From a virus, in the UHGV virus genome UHGV-1468954: a DNA stretch of 30,750 nt. One strand, given 5' to 3'. Of the stretch, positions 9,785 through 29,054 are shown piece by piece (position 1 is the stretch's first letter; each line of letters begins with the position of its first letter). The notes under the pieces are model-generated. The model had not been told where the DNA came from. It did not search any database and was given only the letters and a program-made list of their open reading frames with translations. Position numbers and translations under genes: made by a program.

Positions 9785-11056
9785 TTACGGATTACCGAAG
9801 AACTGACCGCCCATGTGAGGGTTAAAGCACACATATGCAGGCAGTAAGTCGAAGCGCATTTTTTGCACGTTGGCATCGCCATCTGCGTATTTATGTACGC
9901 GGATGGAGAAACCTTCATATGTTGCAACAGCAGAATCAATACTGTGCAGTTTCGGCAGTGGGATAGAGCCAAGTCCACAGAAGAACTTGTTATAGAACAG
10001 GTTTGGCTTCATTGTCTGGCTAGCAGTGCCTACTACAGATACGGCATCGCCTGCCTCTACCTGACGACTTACAGAGTTGTACTGCGGGTTTGTAGTGTCA
10101 TAAATCGGAACACCAGAAAGCGTAACCGTCACATCGCCACTGCTGTCTGAATTAGCATCAGCAGTAACCGTTGCAGTGAAGCTAATTGGTGTGGCTCCGT
10201 TATACAACGCCTGTTTGGTCTGCTGTTGCAGCCAGTAGGTATTGGTGAATTTAACCTGATCACCAGCTTTCAGAAAACCTGTAACGCTGGCTGTCGCTCC
10301 GGTCAATGTTACAGTGAACTGGTATGAGTCTTTAACTGCGTTATAGGTAACAGTTGGCTGTGTTTTGACTGTCAGTGTTCCGCCAAATGCCCCCTGCGTA
10401 CGAGAGGCAAGCCCATTAGACATCAGTGCGCGAATGCCGCCAAAATTGGTTGGGATCTGTGCGTTCTCCCATGCAGTACGAACCAATTGATCTGAAGCAT
10501 GCAAACCAGTCTGCGCATCAGCAAGTCGCTGTGCAGACCATGGATCCATTACAGCATAGTTTTCACCTTCATTAACGCCGAGGTCTTTCAGGAAAGATGC
10601 CGTCTGCGCAACATCAGACCATTTGGTGATTGGAGTATTGGGGCTACCAAGTGACAACGCACCGTTATTCATCATGAAGTGAGCAAGCTCTGTTTCAAGG
10701 TCGGTAACGATTCGCTGGCGAACCGGCGCGAGAATTTCTTCCAGTTGGTTAAGCTTGATCGCTTCCTCCAGTTGCTGATATTCAACAGCAACAGTGATGT
10801 AGTTACCTACACGCCCCGTAGCTTTACCTGAGATCAGGTTGTTTTTATTTTGCCCTGAGATATCACCAGTGGGAGTACGGAGGGATGAGAATTGATGCGG
10901 ACGTTTAAAGCTAACGCTATCGCCAGTGCTGGAGTTGATTTCACCTGCCAGCAACTGACGGTCTACGGTTTTCGCCAGAACTAAATCTGACATAAAACCC
11001 GGAAGGAATTTTTTCAGAACGATTTGACTGACGTTACTGTCGAGATTGTTAGGCAT
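9785..11056 (-). CDS. Major capsid (coat) protein, P22 gp5 family
   Basis: 423 aa; follows the scaffold and precedes gp4 as in P22-like phages; size close to P22 coat. Confidence 0.8.
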   Translation of the reverse strand: MPNNLDSNVSQIVLKKFLPGFMSDLVLAKTVDRQLLAGEINSSTGDSVSFKRPHQFSSLRTPTGDISGQNKNNLISGKATGRVGNYITVAVEYQQLEEAIKLNQLEEILAPVRQRIVTDLETELAHFMMNNGALSLGSPNTPITKWSDVAQTASFLKDLGVNEGENYAVMDPWSAQRLADAQTGLHASDQLVRTAWENAQIPTNFGGIRALMSNGLASRTQGAFGGTLTVKTQPTVTYNAVKDSYQFTVTLTGATASVTGFLKAGDQVKFTNTYWLQQQTKQALYNGATPISFTATVTADANSDSSGDVTVTLSGVPIYDTTNPQYNSVSRQVEAGDAVSVVGTASQTMKPNLFYNKFFCGLGSIPLPKLHSIDSAVATYEGFSIRVHKYADGDANVQKMRFDLLPAYVCFNPHMGGQFFGNP

Positions 11057-11067
11057 TTATCTTTTCC

Positions 11068-11952
11068 TTATTCGATTTTTGCGCCGGGGCATAATTTGTT
11101 GAATTCGTCTTGTTTCGCATCAGCACCGCCACCACGTACTTCCGGCTCTGGCTTGATGGCTTTCTTTGGTTTTGGAGCAAGGCTTACCTGTTTGCTAATC
11201 TGCCCCAAGAGGAATGCTGCGCGAATTGGATCTGTCTCAGCGGCTACACGCTGGCGTAATTGCTGGCTCTTACCTAAGCCATAGGCGAGTAGTTCAGAGC
11301 CTTCGTCTGCACAGTGAATGATGATTTCCTGCTGAATTGGTGGTAGCTCACTAAGAACAATGGCTTCCATTTCCTGATAATCTTTCACAGGAAGTTTGGC
11401 TGCCCGTTGTTTATGCGCTTCTACCCTTTGCTGGAAACGCTGCTGGTATTCCTGTTGCTGACGTAGTTTTTGTTGCTGCTGCTGTTCGACACGGCCTTTT
11501 TTCTCATGCCAATCAGTCAATGCCTGTTCAAACGCCTGTTCGTCATAATCACACGACTCAAGAGTCGGTTTTGGTGGAATAGCGTCTGGTTGTGGTTGCT
11601 GATGTTCCGCAGGCTTGGCTAATGCTTCCTCAAGCTGGCGGCGCAACTCACGGTTTTCTTTCTGTGTTTCTTTGAATCCTTTGCGAAGATCTTTCACCCA
11701 TTGCGGTGCAGGTTGCCCGTCAATGTGATCATCATCGTCAGCGTTAAGCTGAATTTCTTCATCACCAATACGCAAGGCGTAATCTTCTGGTGTCTCTTCG
11801 GTTTTTTCAGGATCAGTTGCCATCTCTTTTCCGTTGTCATCCTGGCTTTCATTCTCAGGCTGTGACTCTGTTTGGATGATGGTTTCTTCTGCATTTTCCT
11901 GTGTTTCAGACAGGTCAATAACCTGACCGTCGATGATCAGTTCGTTTTCCAT
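11068..11952 (-). CDS. Scaffolding protein, P22 gp8-like
   Basis: 294 aa; acidic, Gln/Glu-rich, with a basic C-terminal tail; between portal and coat. Confidence 0.75.
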   Translation of the reverse strand: MENELIIDGQVIDLSETQENAEETIIQTESQPENESQDDNGKEMATDPEKTEETPEDYALRIGDEEIQLNADDDDHIDGQPAPQWVKDLRKGFKETQKENRELRRQLEEALAKPAEHQQPQPDAIPPKPTLESCDYDEQAFEQALTDWHEKKGRVEQQQQQKLRQQQEYQQRFQQRVEAHKQRAAKLPVKDYQEMEAIVLSELPPIQQEIIIHCADEGSELLAYGLGKSQQLRQRVAAETDPIRAAFLLGQISKQVSLAPKPKKAIKPEPEVRGGGADAKQDEFNKLCPGAKIE

Positions 11953-11965
11953 TGATTACTCCTGG

Positions 11966-14092
11966 TTAACTCGGCATTAAGTCTGCCGGTGACTGTGGTG
12001 GTGACTGGAATTGCTGTTGTTGTGACTCGGCGACATCTTTCAGAAGGCGTATTGCCTCCATCACTGCTTTGTCATCGATGTTTCTGGCTTGAGCCAGTTT
12101 ATAGACAGTGTTTGCCTGACTCTCCATCGCATCCTGCTGGGCAGTAAATGCTTTGATTTGAGTTTGAGCAGTTTCGTTAGTTGCTTTTTGCGCTTCTGCC
12201 TGCGCTGCTACCATTTGCGCCTGAGCGAGAACCATTTCAGGATTTGGCTGGCTTTGTGCTGCCATTTGCGCCTGTTGAACAATCTGCTGCTCTTTCTCAT
12301 TGCGTGGTTTTGCAATACCAGATATCAGCAGTTGGTTTCGGTTGTACTCTTTGAAGTCATCAAGGCCTTCGCCATCGATATTGTCCAGAATAATACCCTG
12401 AATTGCCTGGCGCATTGGGTCTGTTGGAAGCATAGAGCTAAGGACATTTGTCAGTACAGAAACCGTTGCATCACGTCGTGCTGTGTAGCTTGGTCCAACA
12501 TCAACCGTCACATCGTATCGACCGACAGAAAGGTCATTTAACGCAACAACAGCCCCTGTTTGCCTGTCAACAACCTGTGCGCTCAGGACAGCGATATCAT
12601 CACTTCCATCTTCGTTAACGATGCGCACTTCACGTTCTGAACCGTACACTTCACGCGCCATTGACAGCCATACTTCACCAGCGCGTTTAAGACTTTTCGC
12701 CATATTGTCCAGATAGATAAACGAAGCCATATCTGCTCTGTTCATCAAGTTGTTAACCGTTTCCTGAGCAATATTACTTGGCATCTGCTGCATGGCCTGA
12801 CTGCCGCCTGTAACCTCCTGAATATCTGCACTGGTTTGCTGTAGTAATGCAGCCAATGCCTGATTCATAACCGCAGGCTGTGTATATCCTGCCGGGGTAG
12901 CTCCAGCGATAATGTTGCCAGATTTATCTCTCACTTCGCGCAACGGCAAGAACGCTGGGCGTTTCTTGTTGCGAGCCTCCCAGTGCTTCTCAAGTCCACG
13001 AATTTGCTCCATGCCAACTATAGGGATCTGACCGGGGTCTTGCGCTGCAGTATCAGCCAGCATTGAAACCTGAAGGTTGTACAAACGCTGTGGATCCATT
13101 GCTTTTGCAATGTGCCCTTCGACACGCTCAATGTCATCAATGAACCAGCGTTTTCCATAAACCGGGATGAGGGGGATATGCTCACCAGGAATACGTCGAG
13201 GTTTCTCAAGGAAACCATCACCATCCACTACGGATACATACACACGACGGCGCTTCACTGAGCGCCTTGCCACTTCCTGAAATCCAGCTATTGCCAGTTC
13301 ATCTTCAATATCTTCAACCTGATCACTGTCGTATGTTGCAATCTCTCCAGTGATTGGATGTCGATAACTGATGACGTCAACAGACTCTTTACGAACTTCG
13401 TAATACTTCGCTATGTAAATAACATCTGCACCAAACCAGTTATATTCCCAACTGGTCATAGACGTTACATCCAGAGAAGTAGGAGGTTTCTTTCCGTATT
13501 CAGCCTCATATTTTTCAGGTGACAACGAATACATACAGAACGCCCACAACGCGTCAGATTTGTCGTACTTCTTAGCGTCAGGGTCAAACCACACAGAGCG
13601 CGACGGGTCGTATATTGGTTCAATAGCAATACGCTGACGATCGTCCATGGGGTCGTATTCATTGACCAGCATCGACGTCAAACGGAAGCAACCGAAACCA
13701 CCAGTAGCAGCGTCGTCAAATGCATTATCGCAAGCCTCACCGCCATCAGTTTCTTCGTAGTCAGCACGGAACAGACCATTTAATTTATTGGCTAACTCTT
13801 CGCTTGCCTCTCTGTCACCAGGACGAAACTTAACGGTGATTCTGTTATTGCGGTATTCTGCAATGATGCGGTTAAGTTCAGTTGCTACCTTATTGATTTC
13901 AAACTTAGGATACTTCTCGAACTGCTCATCAAGCTTAGTTCCAGCCGCCGTTGCTCCTTCCCATTGACCTCCTGGGACACGAGCAAACCTCGTAGCTTCA
14001 ATGCACTTTTCGCGCACTTCCTTCTGTGGAGAATAGGCGCGGTCAAACCTGAGCATGATCCGCTCATGTTTTTTCTCTAATGTCTCTGCCAT
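11966..14092 (-). CDS. Portal protein, P22 gp1 family
   Basis: Track ORF 11966..14164; likely start is ATG 14092 (MAETLEKKHERI...), 2 nt after the TerL stop. Segment ...KKYDKSDALWAFCMYSLSPEKYEAEYGKKPPTSLD... aligns with P22 portal (memory). Confidence 0.8.
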   Translation of the reverse strand: MAETLEKKHERIMLRFDRAYSPQKEVREKCIEATRFARVPGGQWEGATAAGTKLDEQFEKYPKFEINKVATELNRIIAEYRNNRITVKFRPGDREASEELANKLNGLFRADYEETDGGEACDNAFDDAATGGFGCFRLTSMLVNEYDPMDDRQRIAIEPIYDPSRSVWFDPDAKKYDKSDALWAFCMYSLSPEKYEAEYGKKPPTSLDVTSMTSWEYNWFGADVIYIAKYYEVRKESVDVISYRHPITGEIATYDSDQVEDIEDELAIAGFQEVARRSVKRRRVYVSVVDGDGFLEKPRRIPGEHIPLIPVYGKRWFIDDIERVEGHIAKAMDPQRLYNLQVSMLADTAAQDPGQIPIVGMEQIRGLEKHWEARNKKRPAFLPLREVRDKSGNIIAGATPAGYTQPAVMNQALAALLQQTSADIQEVTGGSQAMQQMPSNIAQETVNNLMNRADMASFIYLDNMAKSLKRAGEVWLSMAREVYGSEREVRIVNEDGSDDIAVLSAQVVDRQTGAVVALNDLSVGRYDVTVDVGPSYTARRDATVSVLTNVLSSMLPTDPMRQAIQGIILDNIDGEGLDDFKEYNRNQLLISGIAKPRNEKEQQIVQQAQMAAQSQPNPEMVLAQAQMVAAQAEAQKATNETAQTQIKAFTAQQDAMESQANTVYKLAQARNIDDKAVMEAIRLLKDVAESQQQQFQSPPQSPADLMPS

Positions 14093-14094
14093 GT

Positions 14095-15507
14095 TTACCA
14101 ACCGGAGGATGAGGGAACGTATATTTCTGTTTCTTCGCGGACCAATGCCGGGCAATGCATACACATCATCAGCGCATCAGCCAGGTTAGGAGATGGAATA
14201 CCGAGCTTCTGCTTCATTTCGACCTTAGTCATAAGCTCCAGCTTCCCGTTATTATTGAATTTGCGCTGAATCTGCGTCAGTTCTGCAAACAGCTTCTCCA
14301 GCATCTTCTCGCCTATCGCTTCTTTGTCGAAACTCAGCATGTCGTCGGGGTCTGCATACTCACCGTGAACAACCGCCCGATATGTCAGATACAGCCTGTC
14401 AGCCAGCGCGTAATAGAATTGTGCTCGCTTATTGCGGAACACATCGCCAATAGTGCGAACGTTGTCACCCTGTACGACTTCATCAGCCCATGCTCCGGCT
14501 TGATACGGTGCATCTTCATCGAATGGCGATTCGCTGCCCTTGAACATCGTGGCGGTGATTTTCTTGCCGGAAAACGCTTCCGTTGTCTGTCTGCGTAGCC
14601 CGGCACCAACACCATCACCATCCCACAGGTAATGGTCAGCGCCGTCTTCAATCGCCAGCGAAGTAGCCCAGTCAGCACCCTCGTTGATGTCCATCAGCAG
14701 ACCTTCGGCAATGCGCTTAACTACCGAACCGTGACGCGATGCATAACCTTTAGCATCTGGCCCTGTATCTGATGGGTCATGCGCAGAGACAACAGCGCCT
14801 TTCGCTTTCCATCCGAGTTTCTTGTGCGCATCGGTTGCGGCTTCAAGCCATTCACGTTTGATAATTGCCATATCACTTGCGCTCACTGGCTCACCAAGCC
14901 AGATGTGACGATACAGTGTCGGATTTCTGCGTTTACACTCTTCCATCTCCAGACGGAGAACTTCAGGAAAGTGCGGGTTGTCGGTGTAGTTCACCGTCAA
15001 CAGGCAAATATCATCAGGAGGATTTACGACGAATCGCTGATAGGTATCGTCGAGTATGTTCTTCGGGTTAAAGCTCACCCATATTTCAGAGAACGGCTTA
15101 CGGATGGTTGGTATCAGGATATCCCATGATTCCTTCGTTACCGCTTCCGCTTCTTCCACCCAGCAGATATCAATACCTTCGAGCGATTTAATCTTCGTCG
15201 GGTTGTTTTTGATGCCGTAGAACATGAATTCAGCATTCGTTCCGAGATGACGAATCATGGAACGCTGAATTTCAAACTCAGCCGTATACCCTTCACGCTC
15301 TATGGTGTCTTCAAGCAGCCGGATTACCGAATCGCTGATACTGTTTTGCAGTTCACGAGCGCAGAGAATACGCACTGGCTGCCGACGCGCCGCTTCAACA
15401 AGCAGTCTCGCAATTGCCCATGATTTACCGCTACCTCGACCGCCTTTGGCGACTTTGTAGCGATGCGCCTCAATGAACGGTTCAAAGATAGGATTAATCG
15501 AGGTCAT
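14095..15507 (-). CDS. Terminase large subunit
   Basis: 470 aa; Walker A VAKGGRGSGKS; followed directly by the portal gene. Confidence 0.85.
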   Translation of the reverse strand: MTSINPIFEPFIEAHRYKVAKGGRGSGKSWAIARLLVEAARRQPVRILCARELQNSISDSVIRLLEDTIEREGYTAEFEIQRSMIRHLGTNAEFMFYGIKNNPTKIKSLEGIDICWVEEAEAVTKESWDILIPTIRKPFSEIWVSFNPKNILDDTYQRFVVNPPDDICLLTVNYTDNPHFPEVLRLEMEECKRRNPTLYRHIWLGEPVSASDMAIIKREWLEAATDAHKKLGWKAKGAVVSAHDPSDTGPDAKGYASRHGSVVKRIAEGLLMDINEGADWATSLAIEDGADHYLWDGDGVGAGLRRQTTEAFSGKKITATMFKGSESPFDEDAPYQAGAWADEVVQGDNVRTIGDVFRNKRAQFYYALADRLYLTYRAVVHGEYADPDDMLSFDKEAIGEKMLEKLFAELTQIQRKFNNNGKLELMTKVEMKQKLGIPSPNLADALMMCMHCPALVREETEIYVPSSSGW

Positions 15508-15944
15508 TTTCCGAATAGAGTACTCATCGGTGATGTTTCAATCTGGATTGCGCCGCCGTCTTTGCCTGTTAGCTCGTGATCAACCTTGTCGCGCCATTTA
15601 TCCTTCTGTCGGTTCTTAAGCCAGAAGATGGCAGCTGTTGTATCAGGCGGGTAATACTTCTCAAGAGGAGTTTCGACAATTCTGTTTTCAATAACACGAA
15701 TATCGATGTCTGGAGCCACGAAGCCCATAGCGCGTTGATAAAGACGGTCACTAACTTCTGCATCAGCGACGGCCTTACCCTTTTTTATGGACTCCGAAAA
15801 CTCAGGATAATCAAGCTTCCACTTGTTAATAGTTGACTCACTGACTTCGAAGAAATCAGCAAGCTCTGCATCGGTGTAGCCCAGCAAGCACAGTTTGCGT
15901 GCCTGTTCGGCATACGCCTCTTGATACTTTGTTGGGCGCGCCAT
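15504..15944 (-). CDS. Terminase small subunit
   Basis: 146 aa; HTH-like N-terminus; immediately upstream of TerL with a 4-nt overlap. Confidence 0.7.
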   Translation of the reverse strand: MARPTKYQEAYAEQARKLCLLGYTDAELADFFEVSESTINKWKLDYPEFSESIKKGKAVADAEVSDRLYQRAMGFVAPDIDIRVIENRIVETPLEKYYPPDTTAAIFWLKNRQKDKWRDKVDHELTGKDGGAIQIETSPMSTLFGK

Positions 15945-15946
15945 GT

Positions 15947-16189
15947 TTATGCTCCGGTGGTGAACAGGTATAACGCTTCCTTCGATTTACGCACCGCTTC
16001 GATAGTGCGGGTAGTGATATCTGAATTAGCGCCGCCTGACTGGAAGTGAATTTTGAATAGCTCAAGCTTCAGTTCGTCAGTGCCAATGAACTGAAATGCT
16101 TCCTCTGCGGCTGCGTTCTGGTTCATGACCAGCTTGTAAATCTCTAACTGGAATTTCTGTTCTTCAGTCATGGGAATAATCTCTGCCAT
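15947..16189 (-). CDS. Hypothetical protein (80 aa), P22 orf80-like position
   Basis: Between the Rha-like gene and TerS; size and position match the P22 orf80 slot. Confidence 0.45.
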   Translation of the reverse strand: MAEIIPMTEEQKFQLEIYKLVMNQNAAAEEAFQFIGTDELKLELFKIHFQSGGANSDITTRTIEAVRKSKEALYLFTTGA

Positions 16190-16416
16190 TGTTGGCTCCG
16201 TTTATCCGTTAAAAGGGATATCAGTTAAGTTATCCCGTGTAGGGTATAAGCCATTGTCGAGACCACTCATTGAATGGTCTCTGCAATAACCGATGTCTTT
16301 CCATCAGTACGCCACCACAAAGAATCTTTTTTGCCATAAGGCAGGAGGTTCATCTTTCAGTGGCTGCCAGTGTTATTTCCCCACTTTCTGGCTTGGGTTG
16401 TTTCGCTGTACTGCCG

Positions 16417-17028
16417 TTAATTGGTGAGTCCGGGGATTACGGTTTGCCCGTGCTGTTCAAGGCGTTCAATTCTCGCCAGTAGCTGAGGCTTCTTAATTTT
16501 TCCCCAGCGATTAAGCAGGCGGCCTGACATGCTGGCAACATCCTTCTCTTTCATGTACTCCAGCATTACGGCATTTCTCTCTTCTTCAAATTGACGATGA
16601 CCAACCTGAAGCATGGCGTACATCCAGTTGAATGCGTTGATGTAAGCAATTTTGATACGCATTGCTTCTTTTTTGGTGTAGGACATAACCAAAAGCATCA
16701 ACCCATCCTTGCGGAGACGGTAGAATTTTTGCGGCTTACCATTCTGTAACTCATTGTTTTTATAGCAAAGCTCAAAGTTGAGCTTTGTATCAAACTCAGG
16801 AGGGCAAGCTTCTATGGTTCGTTCAATGTCACGAACCACGTTCTTCGGCAGCTTTCCAAATGCTTTTGCCACCATAAAAGAATCTGTAACCGGATCGTTG
16901 TTTGCTACAAAAATTAGGTCTCTGAAATCTATATCGTTAACAACGGTTGGGTAGTTCATTGCGTCTTTACCTTTTAGAAAGATGAGCCTGTTCGCACAGA
17001 AAAGCCGCCCCGAGATGGTCGCCACCAT
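16417..17028 (-). CDS. Rha-family phage regulatory protein (P22 orf201-like position)
   Basis: 203 aa (alternative start at 16959); N-terminal motif ...PVTDSFMVAKAFGKLPKNVVRDIERTIE is typical of the Phage_pRha family. Confidence 0.6.
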   Translation of the reverse strand: MVATISGRLFCANRLIFLKGKDAMNYPTVVNDIDFRDLIFVANNDPVTDSFMVAKAFGKLPKNVVRDIERTIEACPPEFDTKLNFELCYKNNELQNGKPQKFYRLRKDGLMLLVMSYTKKEAMRIKIAYINAFNWMYAMLQVGHRQFEEERNAVMLEYMKEKDVASMSGRLLNRWGKIKKPQLLARIERLEQHGQTVIPGLTN

Positions 17029-17104
17029 ATACGGCAGTTCTCAGGCTCAGCTTTCTGAAAGACTCGGGATTGTTACGCGCTGCGATGCGCGGTTTACTGC
17101 AGAT

Positions 17105-17132
17105 ATAAAAAAGCCCCGCGAATGCGAGGCTA
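17105..17132 (-). terminator. Intrinsic terminator downstream of Rz/Rz1
   Basis: Minus strand reads AGCCTCGC-ATTC-GCGGGGCT followed by TTTTTT. Confidence 0.55.
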
Positions 17133-17304
17133 AATCCTGGTATTTGTAATGACTGGCTCTTATCTCAACGCAGCCCCTTACCGCGCGCCAGATGCTCAAT
17201 ATCAAGCATCAGCAATGAGATGTTTAATCTGGATTCACTCCAGAAGTGATCACCACCCTGTCTACAGAGCCAGATGTGAAGGATGATGAGTAAAATTATC
17301 GCTA

Positions 17305-17742
17305 TCATCGAAGGCATTGCGTCCTGATGTACTCCTGCAGGTAGTTAACCTGCGCGGTTATCCTGTCGATTCCACTTCGGAGACGGTAATAATTGAGTTC
17401 AGCATCTGCTGTAAGTCTTGGGTTTTCTCCATCGCCCATGCTGCTGGCTCCGGTCGTTGACTTTGCACAGGTGGCGGCGACTTGCAGGCGCTTACGCCCA
17501 GCAGAAACATCAGCACGGAGACTTTCGATAGTCGCGTTAGCATCAGCAAGCTCCTTTGTGTATCTTGCGTCGAGTTCTGCTACATCACGTTGACGCTTCC
17601 GCATATCAGCGATGATGGATGTGGCTTTATCGCGCTGCTCTTTGTAGGCGATTGCATTATCACGGTAATGATTAACAGCCCATGACAGGCAGACGATGAT
17701 GCAAATAATCAGAGCGGAGATAATCGCGGTGACTCTGCTCAT
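17305..17742 (-). CDS. Rz: Rz spanin (i-spanin); apparent chimera
   Basis: 145 aa; the first ~33 residues ([31 protein letters not shown]) are lambda-Rz-like, the rest diverges; 145 aa is the size of P22 gene 15. Confidence 0.85.
17358..17549 (-). CDS. Rz1: Rz1 outer-membrane lipoprotein (o-spanin), embedded in Rz in the +1 frame
   Basis: 63 aa; signal peptide plus lipobox ...LLGVSAC followed by the proline-rich [13 protein letters not shown]. Confidence 0.75.
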
Positions 17743-18215
17743 ACCTCAATCTCTCTGACCGTTCCGCCAGCCTCTTTGAATTTTGCAATCAGGTTGTCAG
17801 CCTTATGCTCGAACTGACCATAACCAGCCCCCGGAAGTGAAGCCCAGATATTGCTGCAACGGTCGATTGCCTGACGAATATCACCGCGATCAATCATCGG
17901 TAAAGCGCCACGCTCTTTAATCTGTTGCAGTGCCACAGCGTCCTGGCTTTTCGGAGAGAAGTCTTTCAGGCCAAGCTGCTTACGATAGGCATCCCACCAA
18001 CGGGAAAGAAGCTGGTAACGTCCGGCTGCTGTTGATTTGAGTTTGGGGTTTAGCGTGACAAGTTTGCGAGGGTGATCGGAGTAATCAGTGAATAGCTCTC
18101 CGCCTACAATGACGTCATAACCATGATTTCTGGTTTTCTGACGTCCGTTATCAGTTCCCTCTGACCACGCCAGCATATCGAGGAACGCCTTACGTTGATT
18201 ATTGATTTCCACCAT
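17739..18215 (-). CDS. R: Endolysin (lytic transglycosylase), lambda R
   Basis: 158 aa; [62 protein letters not shown]... is near-identical to lambda R (memory). Confidence 0.9.
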
Positions 18216-18522
18216 CTTCTACTCCGGCTTTTTTAGCAGCGAAGCGTTTGATAAGCGAACCAATCGAGTCAGTACCGATGTAGCCGATAAACACGCTCGT
18301 TATATAAGCGAGATTGCTACTTAGTCCGGCGAAGTCGAGAAGGTCACGAATGAACCAGGCGATAATGGCGCACATCGTTGCGTCGATTACTGTTTTTGTA
18401 AACGCACCGCCATTATATCTGCCGCGAAGGTACGCCATTGCAAACGCAAGGATTGCCCCGATGCCTTGTTCCTTTGCCGCGAGAATGGCGGCTAACAGGT
18501 CATGTTTTTCTGGCATCTTCAT
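18199..18522 (-). CDS. S: Holin/antiholin, lambda S
   Basis: 107 aa; [39 protein letters not shown]... matches lambda S, including the dual-start Met1-Lys2-Met3. Confidence 0.9.
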
Positions 18523-18811
18523 GTCTTACCCCCAATAAGGGGATTTGCTCTATTTAATTAGGAATAAGGTCGATTACTGATAGAACAAATCCAGGCTACT
18601 GTGTTTAGTAATCAGATTTGTTCGTGACCGATATGCACGGGCAAAACGGCAGGAGGTTGTTAGCGCAACCTCATGCCACCCGCTTTCACGAAGCCAGCCA
18701 TTGAGCTGGTTTTCTTTTATGCAAAGCACACCGCACCGTAGCCACAGCGGATAAGGTGATTATTTTGGTCTGTCTGGTATTTGGTTTGATGTGCTTTCAG
18801 AAAGGCCGTGC

Positions 18812-18850
18812 TTAAAACGCAAAAAGCCCCGAGCTATTAACTCAGGGCTT
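18812..18850 (-). terminator. Hairpin terminator in the late leader (tR'-like)
   Basis: Minus strand reads AAAGCCCTGAG-TTAATAG-CTCGGGGCTTTTTGCGTTTT, about 60 nt downstream of the pR'-like promoter. A second hairpin plus T-run lies near 18640-18676. Confidence 0.5.
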
Positions 18851-18884
18851 TATTTAACGAGTGCATTTATCCATCGTTGAGTCA

Positions 18885-18913
18885 AATTTACCCAACTTTA
18901 TTCAAAAAGTCAA
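18885..18913 (-). promoter_or_regulatory. Late promoter pR' (Q-dependent antitermination site region)
   Basis: Minus strand reads TTGACT-17 nt-TAAATT, just downstream of the Q stop. Confidence 0.6.
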
Positions 18914-18955
18914 TATCATGCCGTTAATATGTTGCCATCCGTGGCAATCATGCTG

Positions 18956-19579
18956 CTAACGTGTGACCGCATTCAAAATGTTGTCTGCGATTGACTCTTC
19001 TTTGTGGCATTGCACCACCAGAGCGTCATACAGCGGCTTAACAGTGCGTGACCAGGTGGGTTGAGTAAGATTTGGGATTAGCATCGTTACAGCGCGATAT
19101 GCGGCGCTTGCTGGCATCCTTGAATAGCCGACGCCTTTGCATCTTCCGCATTCTTTCTCAACAACTCTCCCCCACAGTTCTGTTTTGGCTATATCAACCG
19201 CACGGCCTGTACCGTGGCAATCTCTGCATCTTGCGCCCGGCGTCGCGGCACTACGGCAATAATCCGCATAAGCGAATGTTGCGAGCACTTGCAGTACCTT
19301 TGCCTTAGTATTTCCTTCGAGCTTTGCCACACCACGGTATTTCCCCGATACCTTGTGTGCAAATTGCATCAGATAGTTGATAGCCTTTTGTTTGTCGTTC
19401 TGGCTGAGTTCATGCTTACCGCAGAATGCAGCCATTCCGAATCCGGCTTGTGATTGCGCCATCCCCATAGCAGCCATCACATCAGTACCGGAAAGAGAGT
19501 CAGAAGCCGTAGCCCGTGGTGAGTCGCTCATCATCGGGCTTTTTGGCGAATGAAATTTAGCTACGCTTTCGAGTCTCAT
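18956..19579 (-). CDS. Q: Late antiterminator Q
   Basis: 207 aa; MRLESVAKFHSPKSPMMSDSPRATASDSLSGTDVMAAMGMAQSQAGFG... matches lambda Q (memory). Confidence 0.9.
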   Translation of the reverse strand: MRLESVAKFHSPKSPMMSDSPRATASDSLSGTDVMAAMGMAQSQAGFGMAAFCGKHELSQNDKQKAINYLMQFAHKVSGKYRGVAKLEGNTKAKVLQVLATFAYADYCRSAATPGARCRDCHGTGRAVDIAKTELWGRVVEKECGRCKGVGYSRMPASAAYRAVTMLIPNLTQPTWSRTVKPLYDALVVQCHKEESIADNILNAVTR

Positions 19580-19764
19580 GGCCTTCCCCTTTTGCCCTGT
19601 TTGACCATCAGGACGCCGTTAACTATTACGTGACGCTCGCCTTTGCTGTCTCGGTTGTACTTGAGCACTGTTCCTCTTGCGCAGGAAAGCATCCTCGCCA
19701 CTTCGGTCTGATTGCCTCGTGTCTGGATAAGAAGCTCTGGTATCGTTTGAATTGTGGCGTTCAT
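19576..19764 (-). CDS. ninH: NinH-like protein
   Basis: 62 aa; ...GNQTEVARMLSCARGTVLKY...VNGVLMV resembles lambda NinH; immediately upstream of Q. Confidence 0.65.
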   Translation of the reverse strand: MNATIQTIPELLIQTRGNQTEVARMLSCARGTVLKYNRDSKGERHVIVNGVLMVKQGKRGRP

Positions 19765-20123
19765 GCGTTCTCCAGTTCGGTGATTTTTATTCCAAGCCGC
19801 CCGCCTGGTACTTTCACACCACGAATTACGCGAATGTCATCGAATTGCTCGTCGTCTTCCGCAAATCCGGCGTGGATAAGTGAGTCGAGTAAACCTTTCA
19901 GGATGTTATCGAGGTCGCGGCGGCGGGAGTCTGGAACGTCTGCGATGACTTTGATGCGGAGTCGTGATTTGGTGAAAATGTCTAACTTGAGTTGGCGGAT
20001 GATTTGCTGAACGTCTTTTCGGTATTTCTGGCCTTTATCGCTGATGTAGTATTGGCTTCCCCGTCTTCGCCAGTAGGTGTTCACCGACGGCGGGTATGGA
20101 AGCACAAACTGATATTCGTTCAT
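19761..20123 (-). CDS. rusA: RusA-family Holliday junction resolvase
   Basis: 120 aa; ...DVPDSRRRDLDNILKGLLDSLIHAGF...GGRLGIKITE... has the RusA catalytic-region pattern. Confidence 0.8.
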   Translation of the reverse strand: MNEYQFVLPYPPSVNTYWRRRGSQYYISDKGQKYRKDVQQIIRQLKLDIFTKSRLRIKVIADVPDSRRRDLDNILKGLLDSLIHAGFAEDDEQFDDIRVIRGVKVPGGRLGIKITELENA

Positions 20124-20410
20124 GACTTAATCTTCCCCTCCTTCAGCAGTATCGCCTGCGTCCTGATCACGCCTTCGAGGTGGTAAAGTCTGGCGTCTTT
20201 GTTGTCGAGATTATGGGTGCGTCGGTCGATTTCATCGTGACACGCGCTACAAGCCCATGCGCCGATCAGGTCGTCAGGCTTCATTCCCGTTCCGCAAATT
20301 CCAGCCATCCGGTAATGTGCCAGAACTGTAGTTTCAGGATTACCATTGCATACGCCGTAAATACGTACCTGGCATTCTCTGCCGCGCGCTTCTTTGCGTA
20401 GGTTAGCCAT
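20120..20410 (-). CDS. YbcO-like (DUF1364) nin-region protein
   Basis: 96 aa; MANLRKEARGRECQVRIYGVCNGNPETTVLAHYRMAGICGTGMKPDDLIGAWACSACHDEIDRRTH... resembles DLP12 YbcO (memory). Confidence 0.6.
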   Translation of the reverse strand: MANLRKEARGRECQVRIYGVCNGNPETTVLAHYRMAGICGTGMKPDDLIGAWACSACHDEIDRRTHNLDNKDARLYHLEGVIRTQAILLKEGKIKS

Positions 20411-21132
20411 TAAGCAGCCTCCCCTGTTACTTTCAGCATTCCGTTATCGAGCAGCTTTCTGGTCAGCCACTGTTGACCACGCCCGGTGATTTTTGTGGTG
20501 AACGATATCTGTATTCCGTGATTTGTGTTGACCGCTGTTTCTTTCACTGTGAAATAGCCGCGATCCATATATTCCTGCATTGGCACATTGCGCCGGGAAC
20601 CTGAAGCAATAAGGATTTTGTGATCGCGCATCCACGCAAACAGTTTGTTTGGACCAATACCGACAACCTTTGCAAAGTTTCCAATCAAAATTCCGCTGGA
20701 CTCGCCAACGCGATCGGCAAACTCAACTTTAGGTGCGGCAATTGCGAGCTGGTTTTCCAGTTGCATTTTCTGCTCAGCAAGATCAGCAGCAAGGCGCAAC
20801 GCTTCTGGTAGCGTTTTGGGGATATTAACCGCGGTTTCTTCAAGCTCTCGCCAACGGTCAACAAGACGAGCGGTGAATTCCGGCGACAACTGGGCTACAA
20901 CGACAATACTGTCTCGCTTACCTTGTTCGCCCTCAAAAACGTAAGCCTCTACGCCACGAAGTAATCCTAAGTTATTGATTTTTTCGAAAACCACCATTGG
21001 GGGATTTCGGATCACACCTCGAGCCGCCAGTCGTTCAATAGATTGTTTCACCTTGTCATGACGCTTACCCACCAACTCAGCGATTTCAATGCTTGTCATT
21101 TTGATGGCATTGCCATTTATTAACTCATTCAT
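20410..21132 (-). CDS. Antirepressor-like protein with Rha-type N-terminus (Roi/KilAC-like)
   Basis: 240 aa; N-terminus IKMTSIEIAELVGKRHDKVKQSIERL fits the Phage_pRha pattern; inserted in the nin region between ninF and ybcO-like. Confidence 0.55.
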   Translation of the reverse strand: MNELINGNAIKMTSIEIAELVGKRHDKVKQSIERLAARGVIRNPPMVVFEKINNLGLLRGVEAYVFEGEQGKRDSIVVVAQLSPEFTARLVDRWRELEETAVNIPKTLPEALRLAADLAEQKMQLENQLAIAAPKVEFADRVGESSGILIGNFAKVVGIGPNKLFAWMRDHKILIASGSRRNVPMQEYMDRGYFTVKETAVNTNHGIQISFTTKITGRGQQWLTRKLLDNGMLKVTGEAA

Positions 21133-21301
21133 CGTCTTCTTCCTCGTACATTGAGCTATTCGGATCGCTCATCAGTTCTGCGCAGCAGTGCTCACACACG
21201 TGAACTTCCAGCACATGCAGCTTCTTACCGCAGTTAGCGCACGTTAAAGCTCGCTCGACGCTTTCTTTCTGGTATTGAATGGATTGGGATGGGCTAAGCA
21301 T
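21125..21301 (-). CDS. ninF: NinF
   Basis: Track ORF 21125..21331; from the internal Met, MLSPSQSIQYQKESVERALTCANCGKKLHVLEVHVCEHCCAELMSDPNSS matches lambda NinF (about 58 aa). Confidence 0.75.
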   Translation of the reverse strand: MLSPSQSIQYQKESVERALTCANCGKKLHVLEVHVCEHCCAELMSDPNSSMYEEEDDE

Positions 21302-23170: not shown

Positions 23171-23461
23171 TCATCTTTTAACTCCATATACCGCCAATAT
23201 CCGTTTCATCGTGGCACTCTGGCGACACTCCTTAAAAATCAGGTTCGTGCTCATCTTTCCTTCCCGTTCTTCCTTGGTAGCAAACCGGTAATACACCGTT
23301 CGCCAGACCTTACCTTCGATAACCAGAAGACCTGCCCGTGCCATTTTAGCCGCGGCCTGATTTATGCTGGTTACTGTTGCGCCTGTTAGCGCGGCAACGT
23401 CCGGCGCACAGAAGCTATTATGCGTCCCCAGGTAATGAATAATTGCCTCTTTGCCCGTCAT
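23171..23461 (-). CDS. ren: Ren
   Basis: 96 aa; position after P and similarity to lambda Ren (memory). Confidence 0.8.
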   Translation of the reverse strand: MTGKEAIIHYLGTHNSFCAPDVAALTGATVTSINQAAAKMARAGLLVIEGKVWRTVYYRFATKEEREGKMSTNLIFKECRQSATMKRILAVYGVKR

Positions 23462-24159
23462 ACACTTGCTCCTTTCAGTCCTAACTTAGCTTTAATTTCT
23501 GCGATCTTCGCCAGCGCCTGAACACGATTTAGAGGTCTGCCGCCCATGACAGGAAGTTGTTTTACTGGTTCAGGTATCGTCTCACCACGGTTAATTCGCG
23601 CTGTCATACAGGTCAGTTCATCGGCAGCCTTGCGTCGTAATTCCGCGTCAGTCAGCGCATTGGCCCGCATGTTCTGGTACAGGTTGGTAACCAGCCAGTA
23701 GTGCGCGTTCGATTTCCACGGATAAGACTCTGCATCCGGATACAGGCCTCGCTTCCGGCAATACTCGTAAACCATATCAACCAGCTCGCTGACGTTTGGC
23801 AGTCCGGCGATAACGGATGCTTCTTCCCGGCACCATGCAACAAACTGCCCGGGTGATGGCAGAAATGGTCGATTCTGCCGACGGGCTACGCGCATTCCTG
23901 CGTTAACCTGTTCCATTGTGGTGATCCCGTTTTCCCGGAAAGCCAGAACCCACTGGCGGCGGATTTCATTCAGTTCGTTCTGGTCACGGTTAGCCAGACT
24001 CGCCGGGAAAGTTGCCAGTAACTGGCTGAACACACCGTTGATGATCTGCGCTACCTGCTGTACCTGCGGCTTTTCGTCGTACTGTTCCGGCATGTTGTTG
24101 GCGATCCGACGCATCTGCTCACGGTCAAAATTAACCATCTGTGCGGCGATGTTTTTCAT
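23458..24159 (-). CDS. P: Replication protein P (DnaB helicase loader)
   Basis: 233 aa; MKNIAAQMVNFDREQMRRIANNMPEQYDEKPQVQQVAQIINGVFSQLLATFPASLANRDQNELNEIRRQW... matches lambda P. Confidence 0.9.
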   Translation of the reverse strand: MKNIAAQMVNFDREQMRRIANNMPEQYDEKPQVQQVAQIINGVFSQLLATFPASLANRDQNELNEIRRQWVLAFRENGITTMEQVNAGMRVARRQNRPFLPSPGQFVAWCREEASVIAGLPNVSELVDMVYEYCRKRGLYPDAESYPWKSNAHYWLVTNLYQNMRANALTDAELRRKAADELTCMTARINRGETIPEPVKQLPVMGGRPLNRVQALAKIAEIKAKLGLKGASV

Positions 24160-25055
24160 AAATCCACCCCGTAAATCCAGTCAGTGTTTGTCAGGTCGAG
24201 TTTTGGTTTGCTAGCTGTCACGCCTGCCTGTTGCTTGTTACGGTTGATTTCGAGTTGAGTCCACTTGTCGCGGAGTTTGGCCGGACTCAGCACGTTACCG
24301 GACCAGAAGTTGTCCTGGCATGCCCAGCGGAACAGCACGCACATGTCGCGGTGGTTACGTCCGTCACGTTCACGCATCAGGCGGATATCGTTAGCCCACC
24401 CTGCAAAATTTGGTTTTCTGGCTGATGGCGCGATGGTCTTCACCATGTCAAACATCCACTCTGCGGCGGTCAGGTCTTCTGCTGTCCCCCACTTGCTGCC
24501 GCTCTGAATTGCAGCATCCGGTTTCACCACAGAAAGGTCGTTTTCTGGCTGGTCAGAGGATTCGCCAGAATTCTCTGACGAATAATCTTTTCTTTTTTCT
24601 TTTGTAATAGTGTCTTTTGTGTCCCCCTGTTTTGAGGGATAGCAATCCCCCAATTTGAGGGATGTTTTATCCCTCGTTTTAGGGGATTTTCCCTCGTTTT
24701 GAGGGATACACCATTCTGAGATGTTTTTATTTGGTCCAAACATGCCGCCTTGCTGCTTGATAATATTCATTCTGACGAGTTCTAACTTGGCTTCATTGCA
24801 CCGTTTGACGGGTAACTTTGTAATCTCGCTAAGTTGAGAATCGGTGATTCTGTCCATTGGTTTATTCCATCCATAGGTTTTACGCAGAATGGCAAGCAGC
24901 ACTTTAAACTGTCGCTTGGTCAGATCTGCGCCTGAATAAGCCTCAAGCAGCATATTTGATAGTCTGGCGTAACCATCATCGAGATCTGCCACATTACGCT
25001 CCTGTTTGGCAAAGTTACCTCTGTAGAAGTTGAGTATTTTTGCTGTATTTGTCAT
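24156..25055 (-). CDS. O: Replication initiator O
   Basis: 299 aa; MTNTAKILNFYRGNFAKQ...; contains the ori iterons in its mid-region as in lambda. Confidence 0.9.
   Translation of the reverse strand: MTNTAKILNFYRGNFAKQERNVADLDDGYARLSNMLLEAYSGADLTKRQFKVLLAILRKTYGWNKPMDRITDSQLSEITKLPVKRCNEAKLELVRMNIIKQQGGMFGPNKNISEWCIPQNEGKSPKTRDKTSLKLGDCYPSKQGDTKDTITKEKRKDYSSENSGESSDQPENDLSVVKPDAAIQSGSKWGTAEDLTAAEWMFDMVKTIAPSARKPNFAGWANDIRLMRERDGRNHRDMCVLFRWACQDNFWSGNVLSPAKLRDKWTQLEINRNKQQAGVTASKPKLDLTNTDWIYGVDL
24585..24706. other. Lambda-type replication origin: four 17-18 bp iterons plus adjacent AT-rich region, inside O
   Basis: Iterons TCCCCCTGTTTTGAGGGA, TCCCCCAATTTGAGGGA, TCCCTCGTTTTAGGGGA, TCCCTCGTTTTGAGGGA at about 24622-24706; the AT-rich tract at about 24585-24620 is on the P-proximal side. 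Confidence 0.85.
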
Positions 25056-25064
25056 AATGACTCC

Positions 25065-25141
25065 TGTGGATTGATCCAGTAATGACCTCAGAATTCCATC
25101 TGGATTTGTTCAGAACGCTCGGTTGCCGCCGGGCGTTTTTT
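25065..25141 (+). ncRNA. oop: OOP-type antisense RNA (about 77 nt) covering the cII 3' end
   Basis: pO: TTGAGT (25030-35), 17-nt spacer, CATAAT (25053-58). Terminator stem CGCTCGG / CCGGGCG (one G-U pair) with a T6 run at 25116-25141. The predicted length equals lambda OOP. Confidence 0.6.
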
Positions 25142-25381
25142 ATTGGTGAGAATCGAAGCAACTTGTCGTGCCAATCGAGCCATGTCGTCGTCAACGACAC
25201 CCCATTCAAGAACAGCCAGAAGCATTCCCATTTTTGGGATGAAGCTGTCTTTCCATCGTGAAATTTGCGATTCATTAATCCCTAACGCGTCGGCAACCTT
25301 TCGCTGACCACGTACAGCAATTCGATTCAGGATGTTGCTTGTAATTGCATTCGCTTTCTTGCGAGTACTTGTAAGTTCCAT
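25088..25381 (-). CDS. cII: CII transcriptional activator; chimeric (divergent N-terminal/HTH region, lambda-like C-terminal part)
   Basis: Track ORF 25088..25468; start ATG 25381 gives 97 aa. C-terminal ...SQISRWK...LLAVLEWGVVDDDMARLARQVA.ILTNKKRPAATERSEQIQMEF matches lambda CII; residues 1-45 differ. Confidence 0.8.
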   Translation of the reverse strand: MELTSTRKKANAITSNILNRIAVRGQRKVADALGINESQISRWKDSFIPKMGMLLAVLEWGVVDDDMARLARQVASILTNKKRPAATERSEQIQMEF

Positions 25382-25439
25382 ATGTAAGTATTTCCTTAAC
25401 AAATAAGAAGTTATGCGCATCAACTTATGCGCGTTGTAT

Positions 25440-25482
25440 TCCCGCATTTCGGCGGGAATGAGGACCATGACTGTTAAAGAGC
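25440..25482 (-). promoter_or_regulatory. nutR (boxA plus boxB) between cro and cII
   Basis: Minus strand boxA GCTCTTTAACA (25472-82) and boxB hairpin UCCCGC-CGAAAU-GCGGGA (25440-57); the boxB is identical to that at nutL. Confidence 0.6.
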
Positions 25483-25490
25483 GGTGTTAC

Positions 25491-25691
25491 TTATGCAGTT
25501 GTTTTTTTGTTGCTTGGGAAGGGCTTTATTTCTTCCGCATAAACGCTTCCATCAGCGTTTATAGTTAAAAAAATATTTCGGCCTGCATGAATGGCCTTGT
25601 TGATCGCGCTTTGATATACGCCGAGATCTTTAGCCGTCTTGGTTTGACCAAAGCGCATTGCATAATCTTTCAGGGTTATGCGTTGTTCCAT
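25491..25691 (-). CDS. cro: Cro repressor
   Basis: 66 aa; [64 protein letters not shown] matches lambda Cro apart from about 2 residues. Confidence 0.9.
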
Positions 25692-25717
25692 ACAACCTCC
25701 TTAGTACATGCAATCAT

Positions 25718-25785
25718 TATCACCGCTAGAGGTAAAATAGTCAACACGCACGGTGTTAGATATTTATCCCTTGCGGTGATAGATT
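25718..25785. promoter_or_regulatory. Right operator oR1-oR2-oR3 with divergent pR (minus) and pRM (plus)
   Basis: oR1 25718-34 TATCACCGCTAGAGGTA; oR2 25742-58 CAACACGCACGGTGTTA; oR3 25765-81 TATCCCTTGCGGTGATA. pR is TTGACT-17-GATAAT on the minus strand; pRM is TAGATA-17-TAGATT with a leaderless cI start. Confidence 0.85.
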
Positions 25786-25788
25786 TAA

Positions 25789-26505
<717 letters not shown>

Positions 26506-28408: not shown

Positions 28409-28527
28409 GGCATAAACAACAGAATAAACACTGCACTGTGTATTCATTCCAACGAGTGAATACACTGAGCAATGTCGCTCGTAACTAAACAGGAGCCGAC
28501 TTGTTCTGATTGTTGGAAATCTTCTTT

Positions 28528-28553
28528 GCCCTCCAGTGTGAGGGCCTTTTTAT
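28528..28553 (+). terminator. Intrinsic terminator (second of the tandem pair)
   Basis: GCCCTC-CAGTGT-GAGGGC followed by CTTTTTAT. Confidence 0.6.
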
Positions 28554-28614
28554 ATGCATACCAATAACGCTTCACTCGAGGCGTTTTTCGTTATGTATAA
28601 ATAAGGAGCACACC

Positions 28615-28755
28615 ATGCAATATGCCATTGCAGGGTGTCCTGTTGCTGGCTGCCCTTCCGAATCTTTACTTGAACGAATCACACGTAAATTACGTGATGG
28701 ATGGAAACGCCTTATCGACATACTTAATCAGCCAGGAGTTCCCAAGAATGGATAA
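28615..28755 (+). CDS. cIII: CIII-like protein (46 aa, C-terminally shorter than lambda CIII)
   Basis: Internal start of track ORF 28510..28755 with an AAGGAG RBS; MQYAIAGCPVAGCPSESLLERITRKLRDGWKRLIDILNQPGVPKNG matches lambda CIII residues 1-46 (memory). Confidence 0.75.
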   Translation: MQYAIAGCPVAGCPSESLLERITRKLRDGWKRLIDILNQPGVPKNG

Positions 28756-28861
28756 AACACTTATGGCTATCCAGACTAAATTCACTATCGCCACTTTTAT
28801 TGGCGATGAAAAGATGTTTCGTGAAGCCGTAGAAGCCTACAGAAAATGGAGGTCAAAATGA
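28748..28861 (+). CDS. kil: Kil-like small protein (37 aa)
   Basis: MDKTLMAIQTKFTIATFIGDEKMFREAVEAYRKWRSK; starts 8 nt before the cIII stop, as kil follows cIII in lambda. Similarity to lambda Kil is from memory only. Confidence 0.5.
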   Translation: MDKTLMAIQTKFTIATFIGDEKMFREAVEAYRKWRSK

Positions 28862-29046
28862 TTCCGGTAGAACTGGCGAAAACCCCAGAGTTAAGCCGAT
28901 TAAAAAGAGAGTATCACATTGCTGAGGCTCGTTACTGGCGTAAAGCGGGAGATAAATCAAAGAAACAACTTTGCTTATGGCAGGCACAAAGAGAGCGCAT
29001 GAATGAGCGCAAATTTCTTTCCGCCCCATCCGAATTACCATTCTGA
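28858..29046 (+). CDS. Hypothetical basic protein (62 aa)
   Basis: Start ATG overlaps the kil-like stop as ATGA, with GGAGG 6 nt upstream; not Gam-like. Confidence 0.45.
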   Translation: MIPVELAKTPELSRLKREYHIAEARYWRKAGDKSKKQLCLWQAQRERMNERKFLSAPSELPF

Positions 29047-29054
29047 GGTGAATT

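Follow-up and report, generated by a model that had tools for sequence, protein, structure and literature searches.

In phage lambda, the spanin Rz is anchored in the inner membrane and its partner Rz1 is an outer-membrane lipoprotein, and the periplasmic C-termini of the two proteins bind each other. The resulting complex disrupts or fuses the outer membrane once the endolysin has cleared the peptidoglycan, and in both lambda and P22 the spanins are needed for lysis when divalent cations are present. The genome papers of HK620 and Sf6 reportedly introduced boundary-sequence features for lambdoid genomes, and the Sf6 record (AF547987) carries such a feature inside gene 63, its Rz gene (misc_feature "bsq7; boundary sequence"). 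A census of spanins places CUS-3, HK022, Sf6, epsilon34 and P22 in the "HK97" o-spanin family and the lambda o-spanin in another, while all these phages share one i-spanin family, that of lambda (Kongari et al. 2018, PMC6139136). Spanins are not mentioned in a paper on co-transfer in lambdoid phages (PMC9836094), and the epsilon34 paper treats lysis cassettes in general terms only.

The window analysed here is a stretch of 30,750 nt of viral DNA (UHGV virus genome UHGV-1468954). Its lysis genes lie on the minus strand in the order S, R, Rz with overlapping ends, Rz/Rz1 being the last of the cassette. S (18199–18522, 107 aa) is a holin/antiholin of the lambda family (Pfam PF05106, E 2.4e-30) with a nucleotide identity of about 99–100% to lambda, HK620 and CUS-3. 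R (17739–18215, 158 aa; phrog_90 endolysin, E 2e-63) is a lambda-type endolysin; the protein is 98% identical to lambda R, the gene differs from its CUS-3 counterpart by a patch of 14 mismatches at 17829–18141, and its end overlaps the start of Rz by 4 nt. The i-spanin Rz itself (17305–17742, 145 aa) matches PF03245 with an E-value of 1.7e-35 over residues 34–143 and phrog_13, Rz-like spanin, with 3e-71. Its membrane anchor comprises residues 4–22, the most hydrophobic 19-mer of the protein (mean Kyte-Doolittle value 2.64), and is followed by the periplasmic domain; cysteines are found at positions 92 and 143. The o-spanin lipoprotein Rz1 (minus strand, 17358–17543, 61 aa; PF06085, E 1.9e-20; Rz-like spanin in PHROGs) is encoded wholly inside Rz, starting 199 nt past the Rz start and therefore in the +1 frame. 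Its lipobox, VSAC, contains Cys20, and five of its 41 mature residues are prolines; the gene is also annotated in the CUS-3 record. The locus thus combines an anchored i-spanin, an o-spanin nested in the +1 frame, a proline-rich lipoprotein and a place next to holin and endolysin, as expected for an embedded two-component spanin. Judged by these sequence features, it is very probably an ordinary lambdoid Rz/Rz1 pair of this type that closes a holin-endolysin-spanin cassette; the spanin function of both proteins is predicted from their family membership and from the published work on lambda and P22.

Comparison with a larger set of phages suggests that the Rz/Rz1 of the window is a widespread allele of the HK97/HK022/Sf6/CUS-3 type that was inherited whole, a reading to which we assign a probability of roughly 90%. 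The closest relative is CUS-3 (CP000711, ECRS218_0025/0026), a K1-specific P22-like prophage of Escherichia coli RS218, to which Rz/Rz1 is 100% identical at the nucleotide level and the S-R-Rz region as a whole 99%. Between positions 15300 and 17828, a stretch that spans Rz, a small downstream ORF, a terminator, rha, a DUF2560 gene and the small terminase gene, window and CUS-3 differ by three mismatches, none of them in Rz, and no discontinuity in Rz is seen against CUS-3 over this interval. Full-length Rz including its lambda-like 5' end is furthermore found with 96–98% identity in Sf6, Sf101, epsilon34, HK022 and HK75 as well as in HK542, HK140, mEp phages (e.g. mEp234) and Stx2a_WGPS4, and with 95–98% identity in phi330. 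The entire gene thus matches a single known lineage (CUS-3 at 100%, the HK022/Sf6 group at 96–98%), an outcome that the initial annotation had named as one that would speak against its own reading. Several of these carriers are siphoviruses or Stx phages without virion genes of the P22 type. In IMG/VR, at least 80 contigs encode the full-length Rz protein with 93–99% identity.

The surroundings of the allele differ from carrier to carrier. Unlike CUS-3, which has a phage-21-type Q, the window has a lambda-type Q, and it also differs from this phage in its lambda cI, O and P and in its HK620-type portal, scaffold and coat genes. Sf6 has the same Rz allele in its genes 63/64 (96–100% identity per segment) and the same small downstream ORF; homology to Sf6 stops at about window position 17143, before the terminator and rha, and upstream Sf6 carries a phage-21-type Q and tRNA genes, unlike the window. 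HK022 (HK022_72) shares the S-R-Rz/Rz1 cassette with 97.7% identity across the 1289 nt that end at the Rz stop, whereas its downstream sequence and virion genes are unrelated and its Rz ends in LK* in place of the LR* of the window.

When only lambda and P22 are taken as references, a sharp switch of similarity appears within Rz. The lambda pair is embedded in the same way and falls into the same Pfam families, and lambda Rz is about 95% identical to that of the window over nt 1–100. From about nt 110 onwards the identity falls to about 52–55%, with a 21-nt insertion in lambda and a protein of 153 aa; lambda Rz1 is 45% identical to the Rz1 of the window over 40 aa, and the gene downstream of Rz in lambda is bor. 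P22 shows the reverse pattern: its gene 15 codes for 145 aa like Rz of the window, a correspondence in size that the initial annotation had rightly noted, it is about 94–96% identical over Rz nt 35–431, and its Rz1 protein is 95% identical. The first ~35 nt of P22 gene 15 differ (GTG start, VSRIKAIIASV), as do its last Rz codons and about 180 nt downstream, and the P22 endolysin, encoded upstream by gene 19, bears no relation to lambda R. In a three-way alignment of window, lambda Rz and P22 gene 15, the informative sites pair the window with lambda rather than P22 in the 3' end of R and in Rz nt 1–78, and with P22 rather than lambda between Rz nt 93 and about nt 431. Allowing one breakpoint, the maximum chi-square was 110.9 with 155 informative sites, a value reached in 0 of 10,000 permutations (p ≤ 1e-4). 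Informative sites and maximum chi-square together place the switch at Rz nt 78–93 (17650–17665), i.e. in codons 27–31. This is close to the proposal that Rz begins like lambda for about 33 residues and then diverges, and the alignment of 17305–17742 with lambda Rz and P22 gene 15 that had been suggested as a check does locate the breakpoint, with a sequence like P22 gene 15 beyond it.

The switch interval falls within the equivalent of bsq7 (Rz nt 70–117; 17626–17673, minus strand), which is identical to the Sf6 boundary sequence at 48 of 48 positions. A joint in Rz is thus already known, as it is marked in the Sf6 genome record. The equivalent of bsq7 forms the end of a longer conserved block at the 5' end of Rz (nt 1–117; 17626–17742, minus strand), which we delimited by megablast hits and segment identities. 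It encodes the transmembrane helix and the conserved motif NHYRDNA, and its protein sequence is highly conserved in most alleles. For SPN9CC, 118970_sal4, 1H12, ev207, phi467, SE1Spa and others, megablast matches are limited to this block (Rz nt 1–117, 90–97% identity), while lambda aligns through the end of R into it (query 1–217; the phages just named only 101–217). Since the phages that share only Rz nt 1–117 differ from the window on both flanks, the block is an island of conservation. It is nevertheless not universal among carriers of the distal allele: in POCJ13 and ST64T, unrelated anchor sequences are fused to the same distal part of Rz. The sequence of the anchor is thus not strongly constrained, and these joins fit with an anchor that is functionally interchangeable.

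We surveyed the edges of homology in 80 IMG/VR loci that carry the Rz allele of the window. In 25 of them, homology to the window starts at the ATG of Rz (17742) or 7 nt upstream of it (17749), and in most of these 25 loci the Rz start marks the end of a lysozyme ORF of the phage-21 type, about 165 aa long. On the other side, homology stops at 17304, 17312 or 17314, at the Rz stop codon, in 52 of the 80 loci. The same 3' boundary, comprising the stop and the last two codons of Rz (17304–17314), is where homology to HK022, P22, POCJ13 and ST64T ends. With edges at the start and stop codons of Rz, the exchangeable unit is the Rz/Rz1 pair itself. The CUS-3-like block, by contrast, has its ends outside Rz, one near 18694, upstream of S and at the place of bsq3 in CUS-3, and the other at about 14200, near the border between the large terminase and portal genes. 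By these comparisons the boundary in Rz is old and shared, its age preceding the spread of the allele, and the recent junctions are those at the ends of the CUS-3-like block.

From these observations we can outline how the locus may have arisen. The step in similarity to lambda (Rz nt 78–117) is an old intragenic boundary that is present in every copy of the allele. The first ~117 nt, which encode the anchor and the stretch that follows it, are conserved in many lambdoid phages; several diverged or unrelated versions exist both of the endolysin gene upstream and of the distal part of Rz/Rz1. Homologous recombination in the conserved block and at the start and stop codons might then reassort endolysin types, alleles of the periplasmic domain with Rz1, and downstream genes; it is the conserved block that suggests homologous recombination rather than illegitimate recombination followed by selection. 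The joint would be tolerated because both Rz1 and the periplasmic domain are encoded 3' of it, so that the C-terminal domain of Rz and mature Rz1 always travel together. As to the direction of the change, the derived form could be that of lambda, that of P22 or the allele of the window. The idea that a junction inside the Rz/Rz1 pair puts the nested o-spanin at risk finds no footing here: the joint is located about 110 nt upstream of Rz1, just past the transmembrane helix, and a single source supplied all of Rz1 together with the periplasmic part of Rz. As the interacting C-termini were inherited together, a compatibility problem between Rz and Rz1 does not exist.

Rz has been joined at other positions as well. 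We mapped breakpoints in eleven phages segment by segment and in a sample of megablast hits; in the sampled hits, segments of high identity end at nt 1, 13–16, 34, 61–62, 113–118, 136, 259, 403 and 421–431. Breaks at the start codon are found in the Stx2 phages 1717, 2851 and WGPS8, in 4A7 and in SPN9CC, those at nt 13–16 and 34 in the P22 group, and one at nt 61–62 in POCJ13 and phiON-2011 (Stx/POCJ13). Lambda, HK620 and many others break at nt 113–118, ST64T and ST160 at nt 118–135, 4A7 and mEp460_4F5 at nt 259, HK620 and Ayreon at nt 403, and HK022, P22, POCJ13 and ST64T at nt 421–431. Among the sampled hits, which are few and non-independent, no high-identity segment ends in nt 260–402, the part that codes for mature Rz1. 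The one break inside Rz1, that of 4A7, coincides with the lipobox cysteine, so that a signal peptide of the HK97 type precedes a mature part like that of lambda.

This pattern raises the possibility that joints in Rz/Rz1 are functionally confined, such that mature Rz1 and the C-terminal domain of Rz (nt 260–402) are never split; we regard this as doubtful. Joints may in that case be allowed at the start codon, in the region of the anchor and first helix, at the lipobox border, past the stop codon of Rz1 and at that of Rz. By the same reasoning, the conserved 5' block might be a maintained recombination linker, with selection on breakpoints keeping mature Rz1 and the C-terminal domain of Rz together. 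The island of 90–97% identity that many phages with differing flanks share at Rz nt 1–117 and nowhere else would suit such a linker, as would the uninterrupted interval of nt 260–402 and the position of the 4A7 break. However, the sample is small and its members are non-independent, the ends of megablast segments are imprecise, and breakpoints are expected wherever diverged alleles retain local similarity, for which selection on a linker is unneeded. We therefore consider the linker rather improbable. If it were true, the first 117 nt would be a sequence maintained for the exchange of lysis modules, and the breakpoint pattern would amount to a natural map of the spanin parts that must stay joined.

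A whole Rz/Rz1 allele shared with CUS-3 remains our preferred reading. The initial annotation had seen in Rz the place where recombination joined a control and lysis core of lambda to a P22-like morphogenesis module, i.e. the fusion of two halves of the genome. Its assignment of S, R, Q, cI, cro, O, P and ren to lambda holds well: protein identity to lambda is 98% for cI, 99% for O, 100% for Q and 98% for R (98–100% overall), and nucleotide identity is 91–100% for S, ren, P and cro. When lambda, P22, HK620 and CUS-3 were compared along the full length of the window, lambda was the closest reference for cI (25501–26500), for ren, P and O (23251–25250), for Q, and for S and R together with the 5' end of Rz. 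The nin genes (19501–21250) are closest to HK620 and CUS-3, the recombination genes (28501–30250) to HK620, and positions 15501–17750 to CUS-3. The head genes (9001–14250) are 97–100% identical to HK620; the tail and ejection genes (about 5250–9000) are mostly 93–98% identical to HK620/CUS-3 and 65–93% to P22. The lambda-like blocks are thus non-contiguous, and many segments of differing affinity make up the window.

Directly downstream of Rz, on the minus strand, lies a small ORF of 50 aa with unassigned function (17165–17317; phrog_11822, E 3.9e-38), which overlaps the end of Rz and corresponds to gene 65 of Sf6 and gene 67 of epsilon34 in their annotations. It belongs to a segment of about 180 nt, bounded by the Rz stop and the terminator, that is present or absent depending on the phage; this segment is missing in HK022, P22 and POCJ13, where homology returns at the terminator. 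The latter (17102–17131, minus strand) was detected by a pattern scan as an intrinsic terminator-like hairpin plus T-run, with an 8-bp stem, six of the pairs being GC, followed by TTTTTATATC. A terminator is annotated here in epsilon34, and its sequence is conserved in HK022, P22 and POCJ13. Next comes a Rha-family regulator (16417–17028, minus strand; PF09669 and PF10549) of 203 aa as listed, for which PGAP places the start so that the protein is shorter. At the nucleotide level this gene is 99.8% identical to CUS-3 and 96% to POCJ13 rha. It is mosaic relative to P22 rha, with an amino acid identity of 53% overall and the last ~60 residues nearly identical. It is followed, likewise on the minus strand, by the DUF2560 gene (15947–16189, 80 aa), the small terminase (15504–15944, 146 aa) and the large terminase (14095–15507, 470 aa).

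Several of these data are what a fusion point in Rz would lead one to expect. A comparison limited to lambda and P22 does put the switch at Rz nt 78–93; the order downstream (Rz, Rz1, terminator, rha, orf80 homologue, terminase) is that of P22; and patches of 75–95% nucleotide identity to P22 occur in the terminator region, at the 3' end of rha and in the orf80 homologue. Yet the same chimeric allele is found in siphoviruses and Stx phages with virions that are not of the P22 type (HK022, HK542, HK140, mEp234, Stx2a_WGPS4, phi330), and the match to P22 breaks off at the Rz stop codon, dropping to 24% identity over 17155–17311 and resuming weakly at the terminator. Moreover, large terminase, portal and coat are far from P22 and 97–100% identical to HK620: protein identity to P22 is 32% for the portal and 21% for the coat, and for the large terminase no similarity to P22 gp2 could be detected. 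Together with the scattered lambda-like segments and the continuity of Rz with CUS-3, this makes it very unlikely that Rz is the fusion of two genome halves. The description of the downstream genes as P22-like stands as far as gene order and some genes are concerned (e.g. gp10, 93% protein identity), but does not extend to large terminase, portal and coat, the head genes being HK620-like; similarly, a junction inside Rz is there as long as lambda and P22 are the sole references, but not as the place where a lambda core and P22 morphogenesis genes met.

In favour of an old allele boundary, the synonymous sites of Rz tell the same story as the informative sites. Relative to lambda, dS is 0.20 in codons 1–33 and 1.21 in codons 34–145; relative to P22, the corresponding values are 1.41 and 0.11. 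Synonymous divergence thus rises six-fold over the boundary and flips between the two comparisons, and in the alignment with lambda and P22 a 21-nt indel lies exactly at the boundary. That Rz has not recombined at all, its 5' part being under stronger purifying selection as the membrane anchor while the remaining part of lambda Rz diverged faster, is the least credible explanation: the highly conserved protein sequence of the transmembrane helix and NHYRDNA motif in most alleles would agree with it, but the six-fold jump and flip in dS, the incongruent relationships on either side of the boundary, the unrelated anchors of POCJ13 and ST64T on the same distal allele and the indel at the boundary itself all contradict it. 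Rate heterogeneity in place of recombination was dropped on the synonymous-site evidence. As the flip in dS across the joint rules out stronger selection on the anchor, the mosaic joint inside Rz is real. Indeed, the site has what marks a boundary sequence: a step in identity, incongruent relationships that include synonymous sites, and coincidence with an annotated bsq.

The main value of these results is a correct annotation of the locus, namely a standard lambdoid lysis cassette with an Rz/Rz1 identical to that of CUS-3 and a boundary that is already given in the Sf6 record. They also hold a lesson of method, as a comparison with two references (lambda versus P22) can make an old, widely shared allele boundary resemble the place where a particular genome was fused. 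Once further references are included, the Rz/Rz1 pair emerges as the exchangeable unit and the window as a patchwork of many segments.

Among complete E. coli genomes, the 7-kb context of the locus (13000–20000) was not found at ≥99% identity, the best match being 97% over 98% of its length; this combination of modules is thus not itself a catalogued phage. The 714-bp region under study (17029–17742) is, by itself, 100% identical in many ExPEC genomes and covered to at least 80% in 444 of 5426 complete E. coli genomes. In E. coli ATCC 11775, an identical copy of the 714-bp region is accompanied by a phage-21-type Q and different replication genes.

In 25 of the 80 viral contigs from IMG/VR that carry the window's allele of the i-spanin gene Rz (L019-L098), we found that homology to this Rz (17305-17742, (-)) starts exactly at its ATG or 7 nt upstream of it, e.g. 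in L025, L095 and L098. In most of these 25 contigs an ORF of ~165 aa resembling the signal-anchored lysozyme of phage 21 terminates at this point (...EREVCLWGQQ*). The 5' end of Rz, lambda-like as it is, is therefore not linked to lambda R either. A breakpoint further inside the spanin genes is seen in phage 4A7, whose Rz (2001-2444 of its locus, L011) we compared with that of the window. The gene of this phage is a natural chimera with the breakpoint within the nested o-spanin gene Rz1 (17358-17543, (-), in the window), where the cysteine of the lipobox is encoded (near Rz nt 259), so that its Rz1 combines a signal peptide of the window type with a lambda-like mature part. The same segment end is also found in mEp460_4F5.

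On the other side of the Rz start, we compared the window with CUS-3, its nearest relative in this region. Within the endolysin gene R (17739-18215, (-)), 14 mismatches to CUS-3 are clustered at 17829-18141 (-), while the flanks are near-identical (1 mismatch in 18142-18652 and 3 in 15300-17828). Judged from this pattern, the patch looks like a short gene-conversion tract within the endolysin gene. The RefSeq labels for the endolysin gene beside this Rz vary among E. coli genomes between "glycoside hydrolase family 104" and "family 24". The similarity to CUS-3 begins at about 18693, in the late-promoter region between Q and S (18523-18955), where the CUS-3 record annotates the boundary sequence bsq3. 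Compared to lambda, this region is conserved right after Q and then again from about 18700 to S, but at the position of lambda orf-64 in its middle the window contains a shorter, unrelated stretch.

Downstream of Rz, a 50-aa ORF (17165-17317, (-)) with a hydrophobic N-terminus and a match to phrog_11822 (unknown function) shares 13 nt with the 3' end of Rz; its annotated counterparts are gene 65 of Sf6 and gene 67 of epsilon34. The segment of about 180 nt that holds this ORF (17132-17311) is present in CUS-3, Sf6, epsilon34 and HK620, whereas HK022, P22 and POCJ13 are devoid of it and have a conserved terminator almost directly after the Rz stop. A mosaic structure is also seen when the Rha-family gene (16417-17028, (-)) is compared with P22 rha, from which its N-terminal Rha domain has diverged, whereas the C-terminal ~60 residues (ORF11CD3 domain) are nearly identical. 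As the Stx-like phage POCJ13 carries the same gene with 96% nucleotide identity to the window copy, it is not bound to P22-type virion genes.

Lambda immunity and replication genes are located at 23171-26505 in this P22-like (Lederbergvirus-type) genome: cI and O share 98% and 99% protein identity with lambda, and P, ren and cro are lambda-like by nucleotide sequence. In the cII/nutR area (bin 25251-25500), HK620 is closer than lambda (95% versus 62%). For 1001-2500 and 4501-5250, a nucleotide match is absent from the four references compared (lambda, P22, HK620 and CUS-3). Their ORFs include one of 347 aa (1019-2062, (-)) and one of 154 aa (2069-2533, (+)), in the region bounded by the ejection-protein genes on one side and the window's tailspike end on the other.
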